Source: Escherichia phage UE-S1. Taken from it: DNA of 64,000 nucleotides. The stretch lies in sequence record ON568341.1; one strand, written 5' to 3'. The position numbers were made by a program, and so were the translations under genes. Every line of letters starts with the position of its first letter. Within the stretch, counting starts at the first letter, position 1. Shown in pieces: positions 1 to 61,806 of this stretch. The notes under the pieces are model-generated. The model did no database searches, was not told the DNA's origin, and saw only the letters and a program-made list of their open reading frames with translations.

Positions 1-3000
1 GATTATCATTGTAAGTCAAACCACTGAATCCACAACCAACGGCATCATGAATTTTATCATCACTGATATCTTTATAAAGTTTCAATCGGTTGGCTAATGT
101 GTTATACTGAACATATTGTCTAAGGTCAGTAAACATTTCATTATGTGTTGATTCTTTATAAACGCGTTCTAACGTAGCTGTAAATTTATCAGTAGCTTCT
201 AAATCATCTGCATGTTCTTTATACCACTTGTTTACACCATGTGCAGTTCCAAGTGTTACATCCAATTCTGGATAGTAGATTTGCATTAGATAAGCATTAA
301 CAAGGTCAAACGAATTTTCATTATATTCTGGGAAAGAATATATGTAACGTTGTAATTCATAGTTATTAACAGAGTCTTTTTCATTGGTTTGATATTTTTT
401 ATTAACATTAATTAAATCATTAATGTTTGCCAAATCTTCATTTGGTTTACATTGAATGTTATCATAATGCATAATAATATCAATTTCTTGGAATCTTCTA
501 TGTGGGGAAATAAAATCACTAGGTAGTGCACCAACTTGTTCCCATTTTTTAGTAACTTCATTATATTGTGCGTACTCGTAATCCCAAATATCTTTTTCAG
601 TTTTAATCCAAGAACCATCAACGAAAATATACCCATTAGGATCTAAATCGTTACAAAGACCTTTTATTAAATCATCATCAGATGTTTTTTGTTCTATTTG
701 TGAACGAATTTTAGTTCTATAAGGTTTAACCTCTTCAAAGTACTCAACAATTTGATTAATCAAATTGTCATTTGAGTAATTTTGTACTAAAGATTGTTCC
801 AAACCAACAATATAGATATAGGAAGTTTTAAATACCCAATCTACAACACTTTGTTCAACGTGAACATATTTTACCATATCAAAAACAATTTCACTTTGAT
901 GTAAATCGAAAGAATGTTTGAGTAATGCTAGTGCTTTACGAACATTTATTTCACGATTACTAAGGGAACCGTTTTCATTATGAATACTATAGTCTGCATA
1001 AATCAAATCATTAAGTTCAATAGTGCTATGTTGACGACCAATAGCTTTCCAATAAATTGAATCACGCGATTGTGCTTTGATATACAACGTCCAAATATTT
1101 TCACTATCCGTAACTCTGATGATATCACCAACTTGATAATTTTTAGTATTTGCTTCTTCTAAACTAGTCTCTTGAATATAAGCTGTTTTGCTATCATACC
1201 CAACGTCATACCAATCAGCATACGACCAGTACTGAGTCATATCTAATGATGTTCCAAGTGATTCGACATAATCACTTTGCTTAATCATTTTATGTTGTCC
1301 CTCACCTTTATTTTCTAAAGTTATAGTAACAACATTTCCTGTATTGGCTGGGCTGTTCATTAACTGAATATATCCATTTTCATCAAAGTGAATGAAATAA
1401 ACTGCACTAGTGGATAAAGGATTTGGTAGATAACCACTGGAACTTAAAATAACAGCGTCATTTTCTTTAAATTTATCCTGCTCGACTGCAATCACTAATT
1501 CATTATTATAAGACAATACACGGAAAGAAACCTCATTAGGGTTAACTTCTGTTGTTTTGACATTAAACACATCTTCCATAACAACACTATTAGTGGTTAT
1601 GTTTTGTGATCTATAATAATTATTTGCACTTTCTACAAAGTTTCTTCGTGCATCAATTACATTCTGGAACCAGGTTTTATTGGAGCCTATACCATTATCA
1701 ACATCTGGATATAATAAATTTATCACCGAACCTGACTTGGTTGTTTCTTGTCCTATTAGTGAGTTCCACATTGAATCCCAAATTAATGGATTAAAGTTAT
1801 AGCTTTCACCCTCTTTACACAGTTGGTATTGATCATGTTTAACAACTTCAGTACTGTCCATATAGTAAGAAATAGTCAAAACACTAGTGTCATCATTGAC
1901 TTTAAACTGCATATTACTAAGGATAAAGGAGTTTTCATTAATTGGTGCAAACCAAGGAATGTTTAACTGTGATGGATCTTTAATAATACGTGCAATATCA
2001 GTACATGATTTAGTTCTGGTATGTAAAGGTGGTACATAAATTGTATCACGTACCCAGAAATAGTATTTTGTCACATAACTGTCAGTTGAGCTATCATATT
2101 CCAAAAATGTACTATAATTATCTTCAAGTGCAGTTCCGCTTGGAAGATACATATTATTATTTTTGTTTTTCTTAGCAACATCTTTACAGTACTTATCCCA
2201 GTTATATGGTTCTACTGGCGAGCATACCCACTCCAATACATCAATAGTGCTATGTGGCAACAAACGCCCCCAGTTGTATCGTTTGTATTCATTAGTAGCG
2301 TCAATATCAACATTACCATCTGCGTCATAAATGGCACGAGTATAATCCAAATAAAATGCAGTGCTTGTGTTCCACCATACTTGACCTACTTTATCTGCAC
2401 CCCAAGCTTGGACTAATTCACCATTACTATTATATTGTGCAGGGTCAATTGGTGAAGTATATGTCACGTTTTGCATAGCTGCACCTGGAATAACACCATT
2501 AATTGGGTCATAAACGTTTAGATATAATGCAGTAATATTTGTACGTTCATCATACGTTGTTGGTCGTTCAAATAGAGTGCTCTGTGGTGCTTTAAAGCTA
2601 TATTTTTTGTCAATATATTCTTGACGTTTATCAGCACTAGTGAATCGTGACACATAACGATACAAACGTGGACGAGTAGCCGGATCAGTAAATTCAATAT
2701 TAATTGAAGTATCAAATGGAACTACCATAACTTTAGGATCTTCGCCAGCAGTGTAATATTGACTTTCTACAGTTAAGGTATCTGGCATAAAATTCGTTTC
2801 ATCAACAAAATAATAATAATCGCCATCTTCAAGTGGGATTTTATCAGTCAATGTTACTTTACAGAATTGTTCAGCGTAAATATCGGTATTTTCGATTGGT
2901 GTTATAGAAACCATTTGCACATTAGTGTCAACTAATTCAAAAATGTTCCACAAACCATTACCATCTTTAAACATCCAAACTGATTCAGGATTTTCACCTT

Positions 3001-27459: not shown

Positions 27460-29199
27460 ATGAGTTGGAAACGACATATGACAGTGGGAAGGTCAAAGCT
27501 ATCGACTATCCCAAATCAGTCCAATAATAGCAATAAATCAACAGGAACAAAAACCAATTTTGCTTCCTATCTTCCAGTTGTATATAATGGATTGGCAAAC
27601 CGTACTGAACGTTATAGTCAGTATGAGCAAATGGACCAAGACCCTGAAATTAGAACTGCATTGAATATCATTGCTGACTTTTGTACTCAAAGTACTGAAG
27701 ATTATGGTTTACCATATAAAATAAAATACAAAGATGATATTGGGGATACTGAAGTAACAACGATTGAAGATCGTTTAGATGCATGGACTGAACAAAATGA
27801 TTTTAAAACACGAATGTATGAGATTGTACGTGGTCTTTTGAAATATGGGGACCAGTTTTTTATCCGAGATCCAGAAACATTTGATTGGTATTGGGTGAGT
27901 CCAAAAAACGTCGAACAAGTATTTGTTAATGAAGCAACTGGGAAAACACCAGTAATTTATTACATACGTGATGTATCATTAAACTTAAAAGATAAAGTTT
28001 ATAGTAATCTACAAGTTGGATTCGATAAAACCGCTTATCCTGGTGCTATTCCTACAACAATGGGTGGTGGTGGTTCTGTCGCTGCTGGCGGTGCATCTGG
28101 ATTCACTAGTCAAGGTAATACTGCTGACCCTTTCAGCACTAATGGTCAATTAGATGTTATTCCTGTTGGTGCAGAACACGTAATCCATTTGACGCTAAAT
28201 ACTGGACAAGATGGAGTATGGCCTTTTGGTACTAGTATACTTGAGGATGTATTCAAAGTTTATAAACAAAAAGAACTTCTAGAAGATAGTATCATAATTT
28301 ATCGTGTACAACGTGCTCCAGAACGTCGTGTTTTTAAAATCGATGTTGGTGATATGCAAGCACATCAGGCAATGGCTTATGTGGAAAGATTTAAAAATGA
28401 AATTCATCAGCGTAGAATACCTTCAAACAAAGGTGGAAGTACTTCTTTAATGGATGCAGCATATAATCCTTTAAGTATATTAGAAGATTACTTTTTCCCA
28501 CAAACTTCTGAAGGTCGTGGTTCGGATGTTCAAACTTTACCAGGTGGTGATAACTTAGGGCAAATTGATGACTTACGCTACTTCAATAATAAATTGATAC
28601 GTGGTCTTCAAATACCAGCTTCCTATCTACCACAAGGTCCAGATGATGGTGGTGTTTCATTATTTGGTGATGGTGCAACACAAGCTATGGCAAGTGAATT
28701 ACGATTCAATAATCAATGTATGCGTTATCAGCGTTTAGTTGCGAAACATTTTGATGCTGAATTCAAAAGATTTATGGTAAAAAATGGATATAATATTAGT
28801 ACTTCATCATTTGAAGTCATTATGAATCCACCAATTAACTTAGCTTCTTATCGTAAAGCTGAATTGGATGCTAAATTAATTAATACATATCTACCTCTTA
28901 ATGATTTACCTTATATGGCTAAACAAACAATTCTTGAGAAAATGGGCTTTTCTAAAGCAGATATTGTTAAGAATGAACAAATGTGGTTACAAGAGAATCC
29001 ACAAGATGGTTCTCAACCTTCTAGTGGTGAAGAAGATTCTGCTGGATTACAGTCTGTTGGTATTGATGCACCAAATGACCCAGGTATGGATCTTGGTATT
29101 GACGGTGATGGTAATTTAGAAAGTGCTGATTCCGAATATCAAGAACAACAAAGTGGAAGTGATGGTTTCAATCCTAATAATTTAGGCAATTCTTTTTAA
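27460..29199 (+). CDS. gp20: Portal vertex protein gp20
   Basis: IIYRVQRAPERRVFKIDVGDM parallels T4 gp20 [21 protein letters not shown]. 579 aa. Heads the portal-protease-scaffold-capsid order. Confidence 0.9.
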   Translation: MSWKRHMTVGRSKLSTIPNQSNNSNKSTGTKTNFASYLPVVYNGLANRTERYSQYEQMDQDPEIRTALNIIADFCTQSTEDYGLPYKIKYKDDIGDTEVTTIEDRLDAWTEQNDFKTRMYEIVRGLLKYGDQFFIRDPETFDWYWVSPKNVEQVFVNEATGKTPVIYYIRDVSLNLKDKVYSNLQVGFDKTAYPGAIPTTMGGGGSVAAGGASGFTSQGNTADPFSTNGQLDVIPVGAEHVIHLTLNTGQDGVWPFGTSILEDVFKVYKQKELLEDSIIIYRVQRAPERRVFKIDVGDMQAHQAMAYVERFKNEIHQRRIPSNKGGSTSLMDAAYNPLSILEDYFFPQTSEGRGSDVQTLPGGDNLGQIDDLRYFNNKLIRGLQIPASYLPQGPDDGGVSLFGDGATQAMASELRFNNQCMRYQRLVAKHFDAEFKRFMVKNGYNISTSSFEVIMNPPINLASYRKAELDAKLINTYLPLNDLPYMAKQTILEKMGFSKADIVKNEQMWLQENPQDGSQPSSGEEDSAGLQSVGIDAPNDPGMDLGIDGDGNLESADSEYQEQQSGSDGFNPNNLGNSF

Positions 29200-57985: not shown

Positions 57986-58031
57986 TTGTGATATAATGTG
58001 TCATATGTAAACAACAAGGATGTGGAATAAA

Positions 58032-58460
58032 ATGGAATTGAGATCTAGTATTGCTTTTGTCTGTGACCAAGAAACGTTAGAGGTTATGGATGTATTGTTG
58101 AATGATGATGGTATTATGGATGACATGGTGTCTTCTCTTGACTATATTCCTGAACTAGAAACGGATGATACTAACGTATGGAGATGTAACATTGATGGCG
58201 ATTCGTGGATTAATATCTATGAATTACAAACACGAATTGATTCTAAGGTTGAATCATTGAAATATGATATCATCTATGCAAGTACTGATACAAAAACTTT
58301 TATTGATGTAGTAAGTCTAAGTGGTAATTTTGATTCATATCTTGATACTGATGTGGATAAAATTCAAGAGATGTGTGATACATACGGACTTGAATTTTAT
58401 GGTGCAGAAGATTTGGATGACGAAGACTATTACGATGATGAAGAAGAATCACAGTACTAA
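58032..58460 (+). CDS. Hypothetical protein with acidic C-terminal tail
   Basis: ORF with AAGGA RBS. C-terminus DLDDEDYYDDEEESQY. Confidence 0.55.
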   Translation: MELRSSIAFVCDQETLEVMDVLLNDDGIMDDMVSSLDYIPELETDDTNVWRCNIDGDSWINIYELQTRIDSKVESLKYDIIYASTDTKTFIDVVSLSGNFDSYLDTDVDKIQEMCDTYGLEFYGAEDLDDEDYYDDEEESQY

Positions 58461-58469
58461 GGAGACGAT

Positions 58470-58967
58470 ATGAACGTATTAACACCAGAAAATACATCTT
58501 TTGATATGGATTTAGTAACAGAACATATCCCTGAAGAAATGTATTGTGTTTTGGATTTAAGTCCAAATGGTGAATCTGATTTTTATTTTAGACATATTCT
58601 AAACACCGTATCATTTAATAGTATTAGTGCTGATCTTCAAATTGGTGAAAAGATTATTCAAGTGCCTTTAGGATGGCAAATTATGTTAGGGGATGAAGAA
58701 ACTGGTATGGTTGAGATGTGCACAATTGAAAACATTCTCAACATGAAAGAACCAAAAGCTTTTGTTTATAATCCTATCCGTTCGATGTATCCTAAGTTTG
58801 AGCCAGTAAAAGTACTACGTGTATTTGCTTTAACAACTAAGTGGCAAATTCCAATGCTACCGAAAAAGAATTTACTCTGTGTGCCGTTACATAGTGGTGA
58901 AAATCCACCATGTGTGTACTTTGCAGATGAAAATGAAAAAATTCAAGATTTGTATCTAGGAGTATAA
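58470..58967 (+). CDS. Hypothetical protein (165 aa)
   Basis: ORF with GGAG RBS. Confidence 0.55.
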   Translation: MNVLTPENTSFDMDLVTEHIPEEMYCVLDLSPNGESDFYFRHILNTVSFNSISADLQIGEKIIQVPLGWQIMLGDEETGMVEMCTIENILNMKEPKAFVYNPIRSMYPKFEPVKVLRVFALTTKWQIPMLPKKNLLCVPLHSGENPPCVYFADENEKIQDLYLGV

Positions 58968-58971
58968 AATA

Positions 58972-59814
58972 GTGTTTGATTTCAGTGATATTAAAAATAA
59001 GTCAGTCGATGATGATAAACCAACACAGCAGTCTTTTTCTATTGCTGAATTTCTAAAACATATTGACCGTGCTGATTATAAGTTCTATAATGACATGACA
59101 GAAAAAGAACGAAAAGAGTTTACACCTTATACTGTTTTGCGATGGGTAAGCTCTTTGGATGATTCTCTTCAAGTTACATATCCAAGTAGTAAAGTTGAAA
59201 AAGTATTTGGTAAATGGAAAGCTGGTGGTAAGGAAACATTAACTGAACTAGTAACTGAATTGAAGTCTTCTGGGACTAATGTTTCATCAGTAACCAAGTA
59301 CTGTCACGGTGACTATGATTGGCGTATTAAATTTGCGGTTCAATCTAAAGATGCCGCACAAAAATTAATATCATCAATGACAGAATTTGGTGTAACTGGT
59401 TCGGAAATTGTGTCATTAGTAGATACTGAAGTTGTAAAATATCAACTTATTATGCTGAATGACATGGTTAATGATGGTTTTTGGGATATGAAAGAACATC
59501 CAGAATTAGTATATCAACTTATGTGCTCAGTGCATGATATGATTGGTGGACAAGAAATGCCCCGTAATTGGTTGAATTTTTCTAAAAATTTCAAAAAAGC
59601 AAACAATGAACTATTTGAATTAATTAAAAGTTCACAACCTGATACTATTTCTACTCAAATGAATGAAGATGAATATAAAATTGTTTTATTACAGTATGAT
59701 AAAAAATCATTTGAAACATTTCTTGACAATAATGGTTTACAAGATAATGAAAAGAAATCTATGATGAAATTGTTTAAAGATGAATGTAAAAAATATGGCA
59801 AAGAAATCAAGTAA
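58972..59814 (+). CDS. Hypothetical protein (280 aa)
   Basis: ORF with AGGAG RBS and GTG start. Confidence 0.55.
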   Translation: MFDFSDIKNKSVDDDKPTQQSFSIAEFLKHIDRADYKFYNDMTEKERKEFTPYTVLRWVSSLDDSLQVTYPSSKVEKVFGKWKAGGKETLTELVTELKSSGTNVSSVTKYCHGDYDWRIKFAVQSKDAAQKLISSMTEFGVTGSEIVSLVDTEVVKYQLIMLNDMVNDGFWDMKEHPELVYQLMCSVHDMIGGQEMPRNWLNFSKNFKKANNELFELIKSSQPDTISTQMNEDEYKIVLLQYDKKSFETFLDNNGLQDNEKKSMMKLFKDECKKYGKEIK

Positions 59815-60505
59815 TAAAGTATACACCTGTAAATTTTGTGACCGTGAATTTAAACGAGAAGAAACTGTCAGCACACATAAATGTATAAAACGTGACCGAT
59901 ACGAAGACCGCCAAAGCCGCCAGATGATGGAGGCTTTTCGTATATATATGCAATTTATGGAATTGAATAAGTTCCCATTTAAAAAAGGCGTGGAGCCTTT
60001 TATTGCTTTTATAAAATCGAAGTACTTTAATGATTTTTATAGTTTCGCAGAATACTATTTGAATAATAGAGATATTATAAATGTGGACGAGTTTGTAAAG
60101 AACTTGATTATCACTAACAGACCAATTACTGAATGGAGTACGTATAAAGCAAAAGATGAATGGATATTAAAAACTATTCGTGCAGAACATCCAAAAGAAG
60201 CTATTGCACGAAGTGTAATATCATTGGTTGAATGGGCTGAAAAGTTGAATGTACAATGGAACACTTTCTTTGAAAATGTAAGTTCTGCTCGTGCAATTGC
60301 ATGGATAGAGAGTGGTAAAATTTCACCGTGGATTATATGGCTTGCTCCTAAAAAAAGTACTAATAAGTTTTTTAAAAAACTATCAAACTCAGAAATTGAA
60401 TATATACTTAAATACATCGATCCAAGTTATTTTGAAATAAAAACTATAAAATACAAAAAGGATTGTGATGAAATTAAGATTATGCTATGTGAGGCAGGAT
60501 TATGA
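59780..60505 (+). CDS. Hypothetical protein with N-terminal C2HC zinc-finger-like motif
   Basis: YTCKFCDREFKREETVSTHKC motif. Confidence 0.55.
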   Translation: MNVKNMAKKSSNKVYTCKFCDREFKREETVSTHKCIKRDRYEDRQSRQMMEAFRIYMQFMELNKFPFKKGVEPFIAFIKSKYFNDFYSFAEYYLNNRDIINVDEFVKNLIITNRPITEWSTYKAKDEWILKTIRAEHPKEAIARSVISLVEWAEKLNVQWNTFFENVSSARAIAWIESGKISPWIIWLAPKKSTNKFFKKLSNSEIEYILKYIDPSYFEIKTIKYKKDCDEIKIMLCEAGL

Positions 60506-60831
60506 ATGGAAAAAGTATATATAACAAAATACCAGAAGGGTATGTACCTGTACCTAAAGAACAAAAATCAAAACAAATATCTCTACTTAGACAAGGATCT
60601 ATTACTGAAATAACACTAGATGGCAAAACATTTCAAGTTCACGATCCGGCTCGTGTTGAAAAAATAATTTCTTTAGTTGAAAGACATGAAGAGCGATTTT
60701 TTAGTTTGAGTCAGGAGTTAGCAAAGACAAAACAAAATTGTAAAATATTAGAGAAACAAATATCAACGTTAGTTAATACAGTTAAACAGTTACAGGAGCA
60801 AATAAAAAATGCAGGATTTGACCGATTCTAA
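60502..60831 (+). CDS. Hypothetical protein (109 aa), C-terminal coiled-coil
   Basis: ORF translationally coupled to neighbours. Confidence 0.5.
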   Translation: MNGKSIYNKIPEGYVPVPKEQKSKQISLLRQGSITEITLDGKTFQVHDPARVEKIISLVERHEERFFSLSQELAKTKQNCKILEKQISTLVNTVKQLQEQIKNAGFDRF

Positions 60832-61447
60832 ACATTATAGAAAGGCCCGAACTGATATTGACATTGACTTCAAGGATAGTAAAAGTGTAATTGCAAAACT
60901 TCCTTGTGTACGAAGTACTGAAAAAATTACGGAGGATGGTTTAATCCCCCATAATAGTGGTGTTCATTTTGACAATATACCAACTGATCCAATTACTGGT
61001 TTGGCTAGTATACAATATAAAGAAGCTGAAAGGTTAGGATATCAAAAAGTTGATATTCTTTCACAGTCAGCTTACGTGTATGTTCGTGATAGAGAACATT
61101 TAAAAGAACTAATGAATCAGGAACCAAATTGGGATTTATTGTTAGAACCCGAAATAGTAGAGCATCTCTCGCAAATTAAAAAACATGTAACATTGTTAAA
61201 TGTATGGAAGCCTAAATCAATCGACGAACTGGCAATGTTTATTGCCATGATTCGCCCAGGAAAAAGGCAGTGCCAAAGTATGAACACATGGGACGAGGTA
61301 AAAGCCACCATATGGGACTACAGTACTATTGGCACGGACCAAGCAGGAAATAAATTACGATATTTCAAAAAGCCACATGCTTATGCATATAGCTTAATGA
61401 TTGTTGTTCAACTAAATGCTTTAGTTGAACATCTTACTTCTTCTTAA
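60809..61447 (+). CDS. Hypothetical protein with motifs reminiscent of C-family polymerase (DnaE) active-site blocks
   Basis: 212 aa. In order: TDIDIDF, HNSGV, LGYQKVDIL, KPKSIDELAMFIAMIRPG. Resemblance judged by eye only. Confidence 0.5.
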   Translation: MQDLTDSKHYRKARTDIDIDFKDSKSVIAKLPCVRSTEKITEDGLIPHNSGVHFDNIPTDPITGLASIQYKEAERLGYQKVDILSQSAYVYVRDREHLKELMNQEPNWDLLLEPEIVEHLSQIKKHVTLLNVWKPKSIDELAMFIAMIRPGKRQCQSMNTWDEVKATIWDYSTIGTDQAGNKLRYFKKPHAYAYSLMIVVQLNALVEHLTSS

Positions 61448-61667
61448 GTGCCACATTACGACGTTTGATGCGTTTCTGTGGCAAATTGCTTAAAGAAACT
61501 ACTGGACCACATACGAAATTCACCGATTGTGTATCGAATCTCTGTGTGTACGGTTCAAATTTCTCCATCTCTTCTTGAAAGAATAGACAAACTGGAATGG
61601 TTCTATTACTTTGCCACCACCAATCATGTGCTATACTTAACAATTCGTCTTGCATTGATTCATTCAT
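61434..61667 (-). CDS. Small basic hypothetical protein (77 aa); coding status uncertain
   Basis: Minus-strand ORF convergent with and overlapping the end of the upstream plus-strand gene. Trp-rich centre, Lys/Arg-rich C-terminus. Confidence 0.25.
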   Translation of the reverse strand: MNESMQDELLSIAHDWWWQSNRTIPVCLFFQEEMEKFEPYTQRFDTQSVNFVCGPVVSLSNLPQKRIKRRNVALKKK

Positions 61668-61806
61668 ATCATCGAAACAATAAAGAGTTGTATACTGTTT
61701 GCTTTTGATTTTGATGATACCAATAAACGTTTTACCATCATACTGGATTACAGTAATGAATGGTGGGATAGTGTTATATGATTCATATTAGTTCCATAAA
61801 TATTAG

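Follow-up and report, generated by a model that had tools for sequence, protein, structure and literature searches.

The stretch of DNA analysed here, called the window, comprises 64,000 nucleotides from Escherichia phage UE-S1 (sequence record ON568341.1), a phage of the Asteriusvirus type, that is, a PBECO4/121Q-like jumbo myovirus of the Rak2-like group. The window carries a gene for a protein of 212 amino acids that is 98.6% identical to a protein of PBECO4 and of many other Asteriusvirus phages. Judged by its sequence and predicted fold, this protein is a homologue of the core of the C-family DNA polymerases, whose bacterial members are known as DnaE or Pol III alpha, and it corresponds to the C-terminal unit (C-unit) of a minimal version of that core that is split between two genes. 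The gene is preceded by a Shine-Dalgarno sequence 10 nucleotides before its ATG and ends in TAA (61445-61447). Its start codon overlaps the preceding open reading frame (60502..60831), lying inside the last 23 nucleotides of that frame, in a series of tightly packed plus-strand frames extending from 58020 to 61447, and the overlap is consistent with translational coupling. Table 1 lists the features of the locus and the other genes discussed below.

Table 1. Coordinates of the split polymerase gene, its motifs and other genes discussed in the text. Positions refer to the window, except for the fused genes, whose positions refer to their own contigs.
Feature	Position	Strand	Description
C-terminal unit (C-unit) of a split minimal Pol III alpha homologue	60809..61447	+	212-amino-acid ATG open reading frame; predicted metal-binding part of a Pol-beta-like palm plus reduced fingers
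AGGAG Shine-Dalgarno/ribosome-binding site	60794..60798	+	read from the sequence
DIDID strand, D16/D18/D20	60854..60868	+	predicted equivalent of DnaE D401, D403 and D405, the first two being catalytic metal ligands in DnaE
HNSGV, H48..V52	60950..60964	+	proposed equivalent of DnaE HAGGV 511-515; palm strand after the DnaE thumb insertion point
K80-V-D82	61046..61054	+	predicted equivalent of DnaE K553-F-D555, where D555 is the third catalytic aspartate
IRPGK, 148-152	61250..61264	+	fingers motif, predicted equivalent of DnaE FRPGP 638-642
KKPHAYAY, 187-194	61367..61390	+	fingers motif, predicted equivalent of DnaE NKSHSAAY 757-764
Family B DNA polymerase (PolB), 1001 amino acids	38642..41647	+	Pfam DNA_pol_B_exo1 E 3.5e-23, DNA_pol_B E 1.7e-21
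Terminase large-subunit reading frame, 886 amino acids	47965..50625	+	546 amino acids in phage SHEFM2K
TTG-start reading frame, 245 amino acids	54880..55617	+	between the UvsX and DnaQ-like genes
Stand-alone DnaQ/epsilon-like 3'-5' exonuclease, 272 amino acids	55658..56476	+	Pfam RNase_T E 5.3e-15
CCHC zinc-finger protein, 241 amino acids, PHROG 11058	59780..60505	+	conserved upstream neighbour of the C-unit
Small convergent gene, PHROG 11637	61434..61787	-	about 117 amino acids in relatives; its 3' end overlaps the 3' end of the C-unit gene
Fused genes on metagenomic contigs L005; L011; L012	519..1649; 1827..2957; 1292..2422		proteins P0271, P0270

An earlier note on the window, which compared the letters by eye, had picked out four blocks of the protein as resembling catalytic blocks of DnaE. 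All four are present in the order it gave: TDIDIDF, HNSGV (48-52), YQKVDIL (with K80 and D82) and KPKSIDELAMFIAMIRPG (with R149-P150-G151). Its list stopped one short, as it overlooked KKPHAYAYSL (187-196), which matches NKSHSAAYAL (757-766) of DnaE. The corresponding motifs of Escherichia coli DnaE stand at 400 (PDFDVDF), 511 (HAGGV), 553 (KFDFLGL), 638 (FRPGP) and 757 (NKSHS). The DIDID strand aligned with MPDIDIDFDDRR of Mycobacterium tuberculosis DnaE1 in a profile search of the PDB and with residues 401-421 of E. coli DnaE, and in a natural fusion protein described below (P0178) an unbroken alignment to DnaE models crosses the equivalent strand. Alignment with hhalign placed the K80-V-D82 segment on DnaE 545-557, with D82 on D555 and IRPG on FRPG. 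For the IRPGK region, hhalign and DnaE profile scoring agree with the PDB profile match to residues 638-673 of M. tuberculosis DnaE1, and KKPHAYAY aligns with residues 741-767 of E. coli DnaE and 766-787 of M. tuberculosis DnaE1. The equivalence of HNSGV with HAGGV is proposed from motif identity, order, spacing and collinearity. The three carboxylates of a Pol-beta-like palm, a DxD pair and a further aspartate, would thus all be present on the C-unit.

Invariant residues, a shuffle test, collinear matches and fold matches confined to C-family polymerases place this likeness beyond chance. In an alignment of 22 homologues reaching down to 40% identity, D16, D18, D20, H48, G51, K80, D82, R149, P150, K152, K187, H190 and Y194 are invariant, so the residues equivalent to those of DnaE catalysis are conserved, as the earlier note had asked to see. 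Scored on residues 271-920 of E. coli DnaE, the profile of the C-unit family reached 10.8 bits, whereas the best of 2000 shuffles scored 3.7 bits, and its three local matches (DnaE 401-421, 594-641 and 741-767) are collinear. This test and the alignment of the fused proteins took the place of a weak hhalign comparison of the family with a single DnaE sequence. Searches against domain and structure databases gave weak matches that nevertheless point consistently to C-family polymerases. The family profile retrieved only two chains from the PDB, both of them M. tuberculosis DnaE1 (Pol III alpha); Pfam DNA_pol3_finger matched the C-unit at E 0.045 and 13.5 bits, under its cut-off of 22; and among the PHROGs the protein matched PHROG 11778 as well as the DnaE-length PHROG 405 (E 0.073). 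No NCBIfam model matched the C-unit, the Pfam result stayed below the gathering threshold, and a single-sequence phmmer search of the PDB returned only a spurious dynein match. When a predicted structure of the C-unit was compared by Foldseek, the top 10 matches were all Pol III alpha (best E 1.7e-3). Only C-family polymerases stood above noise in the fold searches, and small Pol-beta-fold enzymes appear in a structure comparison at low Z. These small nucleotidyltransferases (Pol X/Pol beta, CCA-adding, ANT, MenT and cGAS-like enzymes) are far less similar to the phage proteins and lack the finger motifs of the C family, and the defence-system nucleotidyltransferase models of PADLOC gave no matches. 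Members of the C-unit family are numerous, with 789 matches in a 90%-clustered database and 504 representative clusters at 50% identity, and nearly all are stand-alone proteins of 185-215 amino acids. The earlier note was therefore right to equate the motifs with the catalytic blocks of DnaE, and the protein is homologous to the Pol III alpha palm with reduced fingers.

The compression relative to DnaE that the earlier note had remarked on is real, and it can now be given a specific anatomy in which the thumb, most of the fingers and everything past DnaE residue 764 are lost. Where E. coli DnaE has the 105 residues of its thumb (D405 to H511), separating the DxD strand from the HxGG strand, the C-unit has 27 (D20 to H48). 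The fingers segment from the RPG motif to the KSH motif shrinks from 118 residues to 38, and the 396 residues that follow the KSH-AAY motif in E. coli DnaE are represented by 18. No match to the PHP domain (PF02811) was found in the C-unit, in its partner protein or in the fused protein P0178, and the beta-clamp-binding, OB-fold and tau-binding C-terminal regions are absent from both split proteins, as are the epsilon-binding regions. What is left in the split module as a whole is, by sequence comparison, a predicted palm with rudimentary fingers. The C-unit, which starts 15 residues before D16, also lacks the GS motif that binds nucleoside triphosphate (NTP) in DnaE (GRGSGAGS, 361-368). All Pol-beta-fold enzymes have this motif ahead of the DxD strand. 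The suggestion of a compact, self-contained DnaE-like nucleotidyltransferase is therefore not borne out; the missing motif belongs to a separate protein of 172 amino acids, encoded about 31 kb downstream in near-identical phages.

This partner, the N-terminal unit (N-unit), is represented in phage CBB by gp328, a protein of 172 amino acids encoded 34 kb downstream of the C-unit orthologue gp287. Both gp328 and the 172-amino-acid protein of Asteriusvirus match PF07733 (E 2e-8), the NCBIfam DnaE models and PHROG 11127. The N-unit and the fused form pass the PF07733 cut-off and score far below the cut-offs of the NCBIfam DnaE models (TIGR00594: 54 bits vs 434). The C-terminus of gp328, GLGRGSSVSSYCLYLIGLHLVDSIKYELDVNEFLKW, consists of the GS motif and the helix that follows it, and it ends just before the position of PDFDVDF in DnaE. 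Among 19 diverse N-units the sequence WG[VL]GRGSS never varies, and every one of them stops at EFLK or 1-2 residues beyond it, so the split point is fixed across the family. It falls in the loop that would join the helix following the GS motif to the DxD strand. No gene for the N-unit was found in the 64,000 nucleotides of the window when all six frames were searched with a regular expression for the GS motif, which gave a single, unrelated match at 28513. In phages IA-38 and PBECO4, both of which have a 98.6% identical C-unit, the N-unit gene is found on the same strand, 30,973 bp further downstream, and extrapolation from these two genomes puts it at about 91.8 kb in window coordinates.

Co-occurrence of the two halves was assessed by tblastn searches of each against 50,697 phage records. 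The numbers of records with a C-unit and with an N-unit were almost equal in each genus: 33 and 33 for Escherichia, 11 and 11 for Pseudomonas, 11 and 10 for Klebsiella, 8 and 8 for both Erwinia and Salmonella, and 4 and 4 for both Xanthomonas and Yersinia. Additional N-unit matches among those listed, to unclassified "Bacteriophage sp." and Clostridium phage records outside these groups, are partial and cover 27-53% of the query. In the phages listed with both halves, the two genes share a strand and are separated by 14 kb in Xoo-sp13, 30-31 kb in PBECO4 and Vibrio phage 2.275.O, 43 kb in PA5oct, 116 kb in SCTP-2 and 182 kb in Atu_ph07.

An exhaustive profile search recovered metagenomic proteins in which the two units are naturally fused, namely P0178 (375 amino acids) and P0265 (336 amino acids). 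The relatives P0270 and P0271 are 375-376 amino acids long, share 78-81% identity with P0178 and come from different archives (ENA and Logan). In P0178, CBB gp328 spans residues 1 to about 180 and the C-unit of the window spans about 187 to 375, leaving a linker of 9 residues; linkers in the fusions range from 6 to 9. The serine of the GS motif and the first catalytic aspartate are 39 residues apart in P0178 and 36 in E. coli DnaE. Residues 92-206 of P0178, a stretch that begins ahead of the GS motif and takes in the DFDID strand, align without a break to positions 302-417 of TIGR00594 (E 7.6e-15), which provides the strong sequence link to DnaE that the C-unit alone lacks. The predicted fold of the fused module is likewise DnaE-like. 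On contig L005 the fused gene keeps the downstream synteny of the C-unit, with an overlapping small gene on the minus strand followed by a plus-strand gene for about 315 amino acids. The short contigs L011 and L012 end within the overlapping minus-strand gene and carry a DNA methylase gene directly upstream of the fusion. The phage collection examined contained no fused form in an isolated phage. Two MAFFT alignments of fused, N-unit and C-unit sequences (A3 and A4) had the N-units in the wrong register and were not relied on, and in a third (A5) the last ~10 residues of the N-units are still displaced. One further candidate, a metagenomic protein of 233 amino acids (P0260) considered as a C-unit with a new C-terminal domain, was set aside. 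Only its first ~111 residues match the family, corresponding to the N-terminal half of a C-unit from the DxD to mid-protein, and the remainder is unrelated, so the gene call is probably chimeric or frameshifted. The unrelated part contains a GRRHQLRKHL motif that resembles RluA-type pseudouridine synthases.

The system itself was predicted computationally in 2021 and is already known, with functions that are putative. Iyer et al. described a "minimal, split DNA polymerase III alpha" in group 2.2 jumbo phages on computational grounds and proposed the split enzyme as a model of the ancestral form of the C family (Viruses 13:63, PMC7824862). Their system is the one seen here, and no essential point sets the two apart: the phage is of the Rak2/PBECO4 type and has a family B polymerase as well as a C-terminal unit for Mg2+ and template binding, and a distant N-terminal unit for NTP binding is predicted for it from its close relatives. 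The parts of the article available to us make no mention of natural fusions. The features they assign to the C-terminal unit are present, with D16, D18, D82, R149 and K187/H190 corresponding to D401, D403, D555, R639 and N757/H760 of DnaE. PHROG 11778 is the C-unit half and PHROG 11127 the N-unit half, and the PHROGs label both "DNA polymerase". The CBB genome paper separately noted CBB_328 as a "truncated" Pol III alpha. The C-unit is thus a recognised feature, on the strength of the Iyer et al. study, PHROG 11778 and several GenBank records that annotate it as a DNA polymerase, and the natural fusions together with two conserved neighbour genes are small additions to a published system. The fusions could serve as single-chain constructs in biochemical work, and they lend the two-subunit model independent support. 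The phage module falls outside the four bacterial groups of C-family replicases surveyed in PMC12926913. Those replicases (DnaE1, DnaE2, DnaE3 and PolC; PDB 2hpi, 5m1s, 7pu7 and 3f2b) are single chains of 1000-1400 amino acids with a PHP domain, a thumb, full fingers and beta-binding, OB and tau-binding regions, whereas the phage module amounts to about 384 amino acids in two chains and has none of these.

We consider it probable, at roughly 80%, that the C-unit is the C-terminal subunit of a two-gene minimal C-family (Pol III alpha) core, a predicted heterodimer and putative auxiliary polymerase. The C-unit would contribute the metal-binding aspartates D16, D18 and D82 on the second part of the palm, along with reduced fingers bearing the RPG and K-x-H motifs, and the N-unit would contribute the first part of the palm with the NTP-binding WG[VL]GRGSS. 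The two proteins would then form an obligate heterodimer with a palm completed from two chains. In such a composite active site, the incoming deoxynucleoside triphosphate would be bound by the N-unit and finger residues and two Mg2+ ions by the C-unit, allowing nucleotidyl transfer, and the most likely activity would be template-directed DNA synthesis auxiliary to PolB. The analysis shows the homology, the residue equivalences, the split architecture, the co-occurrence of the genes, the fusions and the DnaE-like predicted fold of the fused module, while the physical association of the two proteins in UE-S1, their catalytic activity, their substrate and their biological role are inferred. Catalysis is favoured over a dead scaffold because all of the catalytic equivalents are invariant in both halves.

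Several observations weigh against this reading. The statistics for the C-unit sequence by itself are weak, with an E value of 1 in the PDB profile search and 0.028 with hhalign in addition to the Pfam score below cut-off. Without a thumb, most of the fingers, a PHP domain, a clamp-binding region and an OB-fold, it is not obvious how the module would bind a primer-template stably. The structure model of the fused form is that of a metagenomic protein 35% identical to the UE-S1 pair and not of the pair itself, and the presence of an N-unit in the UE-S1 genome is extrapolated from phages with a 98.6% identical C-unit. Our literature search found no biochemical or genetic report of activity, heterodimer formation or role for either protein in any phage. 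Finally, the complete family B polymerase with exonuclease and polymerase domains that the earlier note had credited to the phage is indeed encoded in the window, and a second polymerase is not evidently needed.

The rival explanations differ in which part of this evidence they stress. A non-replicative or template-independent activity is conceivable because the thumb and clamp-binding regions are absent and PolB is complete. The heterodimer could then be an active Pol-beta-fold nucleotidyltransferase that does not copy a template, such as a terminal transferase, an enzyme that adds primers or tails, or one that modifies nucleotides or acts in signalling. The missing thumb, clamp-binding domain and most of the fingers would fit such an enzyme, as would the complete proofreading PolB already in the phage, and many small Pol-beta-fold enzymes are template-independent; we still regard this as unlikely. 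If the extreme loss of domains is instead taken, along with an activity that is only putative, as a sign of decay, the module might be a catalytically dead remnant with a structural or regulatory role, for example in binding components of the host replisome. The beta-, tau- and epsilon-binding regions of bacterial alpha are absent. The equivalents of the metal ligands and NTP-binding residues are invariant to ~40% identity in both halves, and the C-unit family has 504 clusters at 50% identity, as one would expect if selection maintained catalysis. This makes a dead remnant quite improbable. Much the same standing falls to the view that the 212-amino-acid protein is a self-sufficient compact DnaE-like nucleotidyltransferase, which can point to all three putative catalytic aspartates and to a confident stand-alone fold in silico and is very improbable in light of the missing GS motif.

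Joining of the two halves after translation is suggested by an analogy. In cyanobacteria, DnaE is encoded as DnaE-n and DnaE-c by two distant genes, and the products are joined through a naturally split intein by protein trans-splicing. The phage module resembles this arrangement in that a C-family polymerase derives from two distant genes, and what looks like an intein occurs elsewhere in the window, in the terminase gene. The cyanobacterial split point lies far downstream of the palm, whereas the phage split interrupts the palm itself, after the GS motif and before the DxD. N-units end at EFLK[W/Y] and C-units start 1-15 residues before the DxD (many of them 1-7), and neither half contained a detectable intein domain. 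Split-intein fragments are roughly 100 and 35 amino acids long. We reject trans-splicing, as the N-unit end and the C-unit start leave no room for such fragments, and its probability is minimal. The least probable proposal is that the resemblance to DnaE is coincidental, a reservation the earlier note had attached to its own comparison. The weak statistics for the C-unit alone would have allowed it, yet the shuffles (0/2000), the collinear matches, the fold searches whose matches are exclusive to C-family polymerases, and the fusions with E 7.6e-15 across the junction already refute it.

If the two-chain core proposed here is active, it would represent a minimal catalytic core of a bacterial-type replicative polymerase, without PHP, thumb or clamp-binding regions, and would indicate that a Pol-beta-fold active site can be built from two polypeptides. 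It would also bear on the evolution of the C family and on the division of labour between family B and C-family enzymes in jumbo phages. A more ambitious version, to which we give somewhat less than even odds, holds that the module is a working C-family polymerase without thumb or clamp binding and the smallest known (about 384 amino acids in two chains and 336-376 when fused), with a dedicated job beside PolB, such as primer extension, lagging-strand synthesis or repair synthesis. Such an enzyme might work with two other proteins encoded nearby, the CCHC zinc-finger neighbour and the stand-alone DnaQ-like exonuclease, and it would make a minimal Pol III core, possibly one resembling the ancestral form, accessible to experiment as a model.

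The C-unit stands in a replication module that runs from PolB through a flap nuclease, SSB, UvsX, the DnaQ-like exonuclease, a UvsW-like helicase and five small open reading frames to the C-unit, and then through the small convergent gene, a virion protein and a primase to a DnaB-like helicase. The DnaQ-like exonuclease is encoded 4.3 kb upstream of the C-unit, and in relatives it is annotated as "DNA polymerase exonuclease subunit"; PolB has an exonuclease domain of its own. One may speculate that the stand-alone enzyme acts as a proofreader for the mini Pol III alpha. The CCHC protein has no Pfam match. Four of its residues, C17, C20, H33 and C35, are the same in the window protein and in its homologues from CBB (gp285), PA5oct (gp265) and a metagenome, at identities of 24-50%. 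Its gene is a conserved upstream neighbour of the C-unit gene in Asteriusvirus and CBB, and also in PA5oct and a distant metagenomic lineage (L009), where the two genes are adjacent or overlapping. The protein may be an accessory factor or functional partner of the C-unit. In L009, a gene for 200 amino acids directly upstream of a stand-alone C-unit was considered as an adjacent N-unit and rejected, as it encodes a zinc-finger protein instead. Scans for promoters, terminators and T4 late promoters gave chance-level, uninformative results, and the transcriptome paper on PA5oct provides no gene-level timing for the C-unit or the N-unit.

The small convergent gene is syntenic with the C-unit or the fused gene in every lineage examined, with orthologues in CBB (gp288), SHEFM2K (M2K_0474), PA5oct (gp263) and L005 (1641-2000). 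In the window its reading frame is interrupted by a deletion of one nucleotide at codon 3, near 61779 (ATG AAT CA-TAT, compared with ATG AAT CAA TAT in SHEFM2K), which leaves only a 77-amino-acid frame from an internal ATG. The CBB gene has GAA at codon 3 and keeps the base. The deletion could be a real frameshift mutation, or else an error in sequencing.

Two other genes of the window differ in length from their counterparts in SHEFM2K. Between the UvsX and DnaQ-like genes, where SHEFM2K has a gene for 153 amino acids, the window has the longer TTG-start frame of Table 1, with Thioredoxin_3 and DUF5889 matches that are sub-threshold only. The terminase large subunit contains about 340 additional amino acids just upstream of Terminase_6N, and these match LAGLIDADG_3 (E 5e-11), Hom_end and, weakly, Intein_splicing; by these domain matches the insertion looks like an intein with a homing endonuclease.
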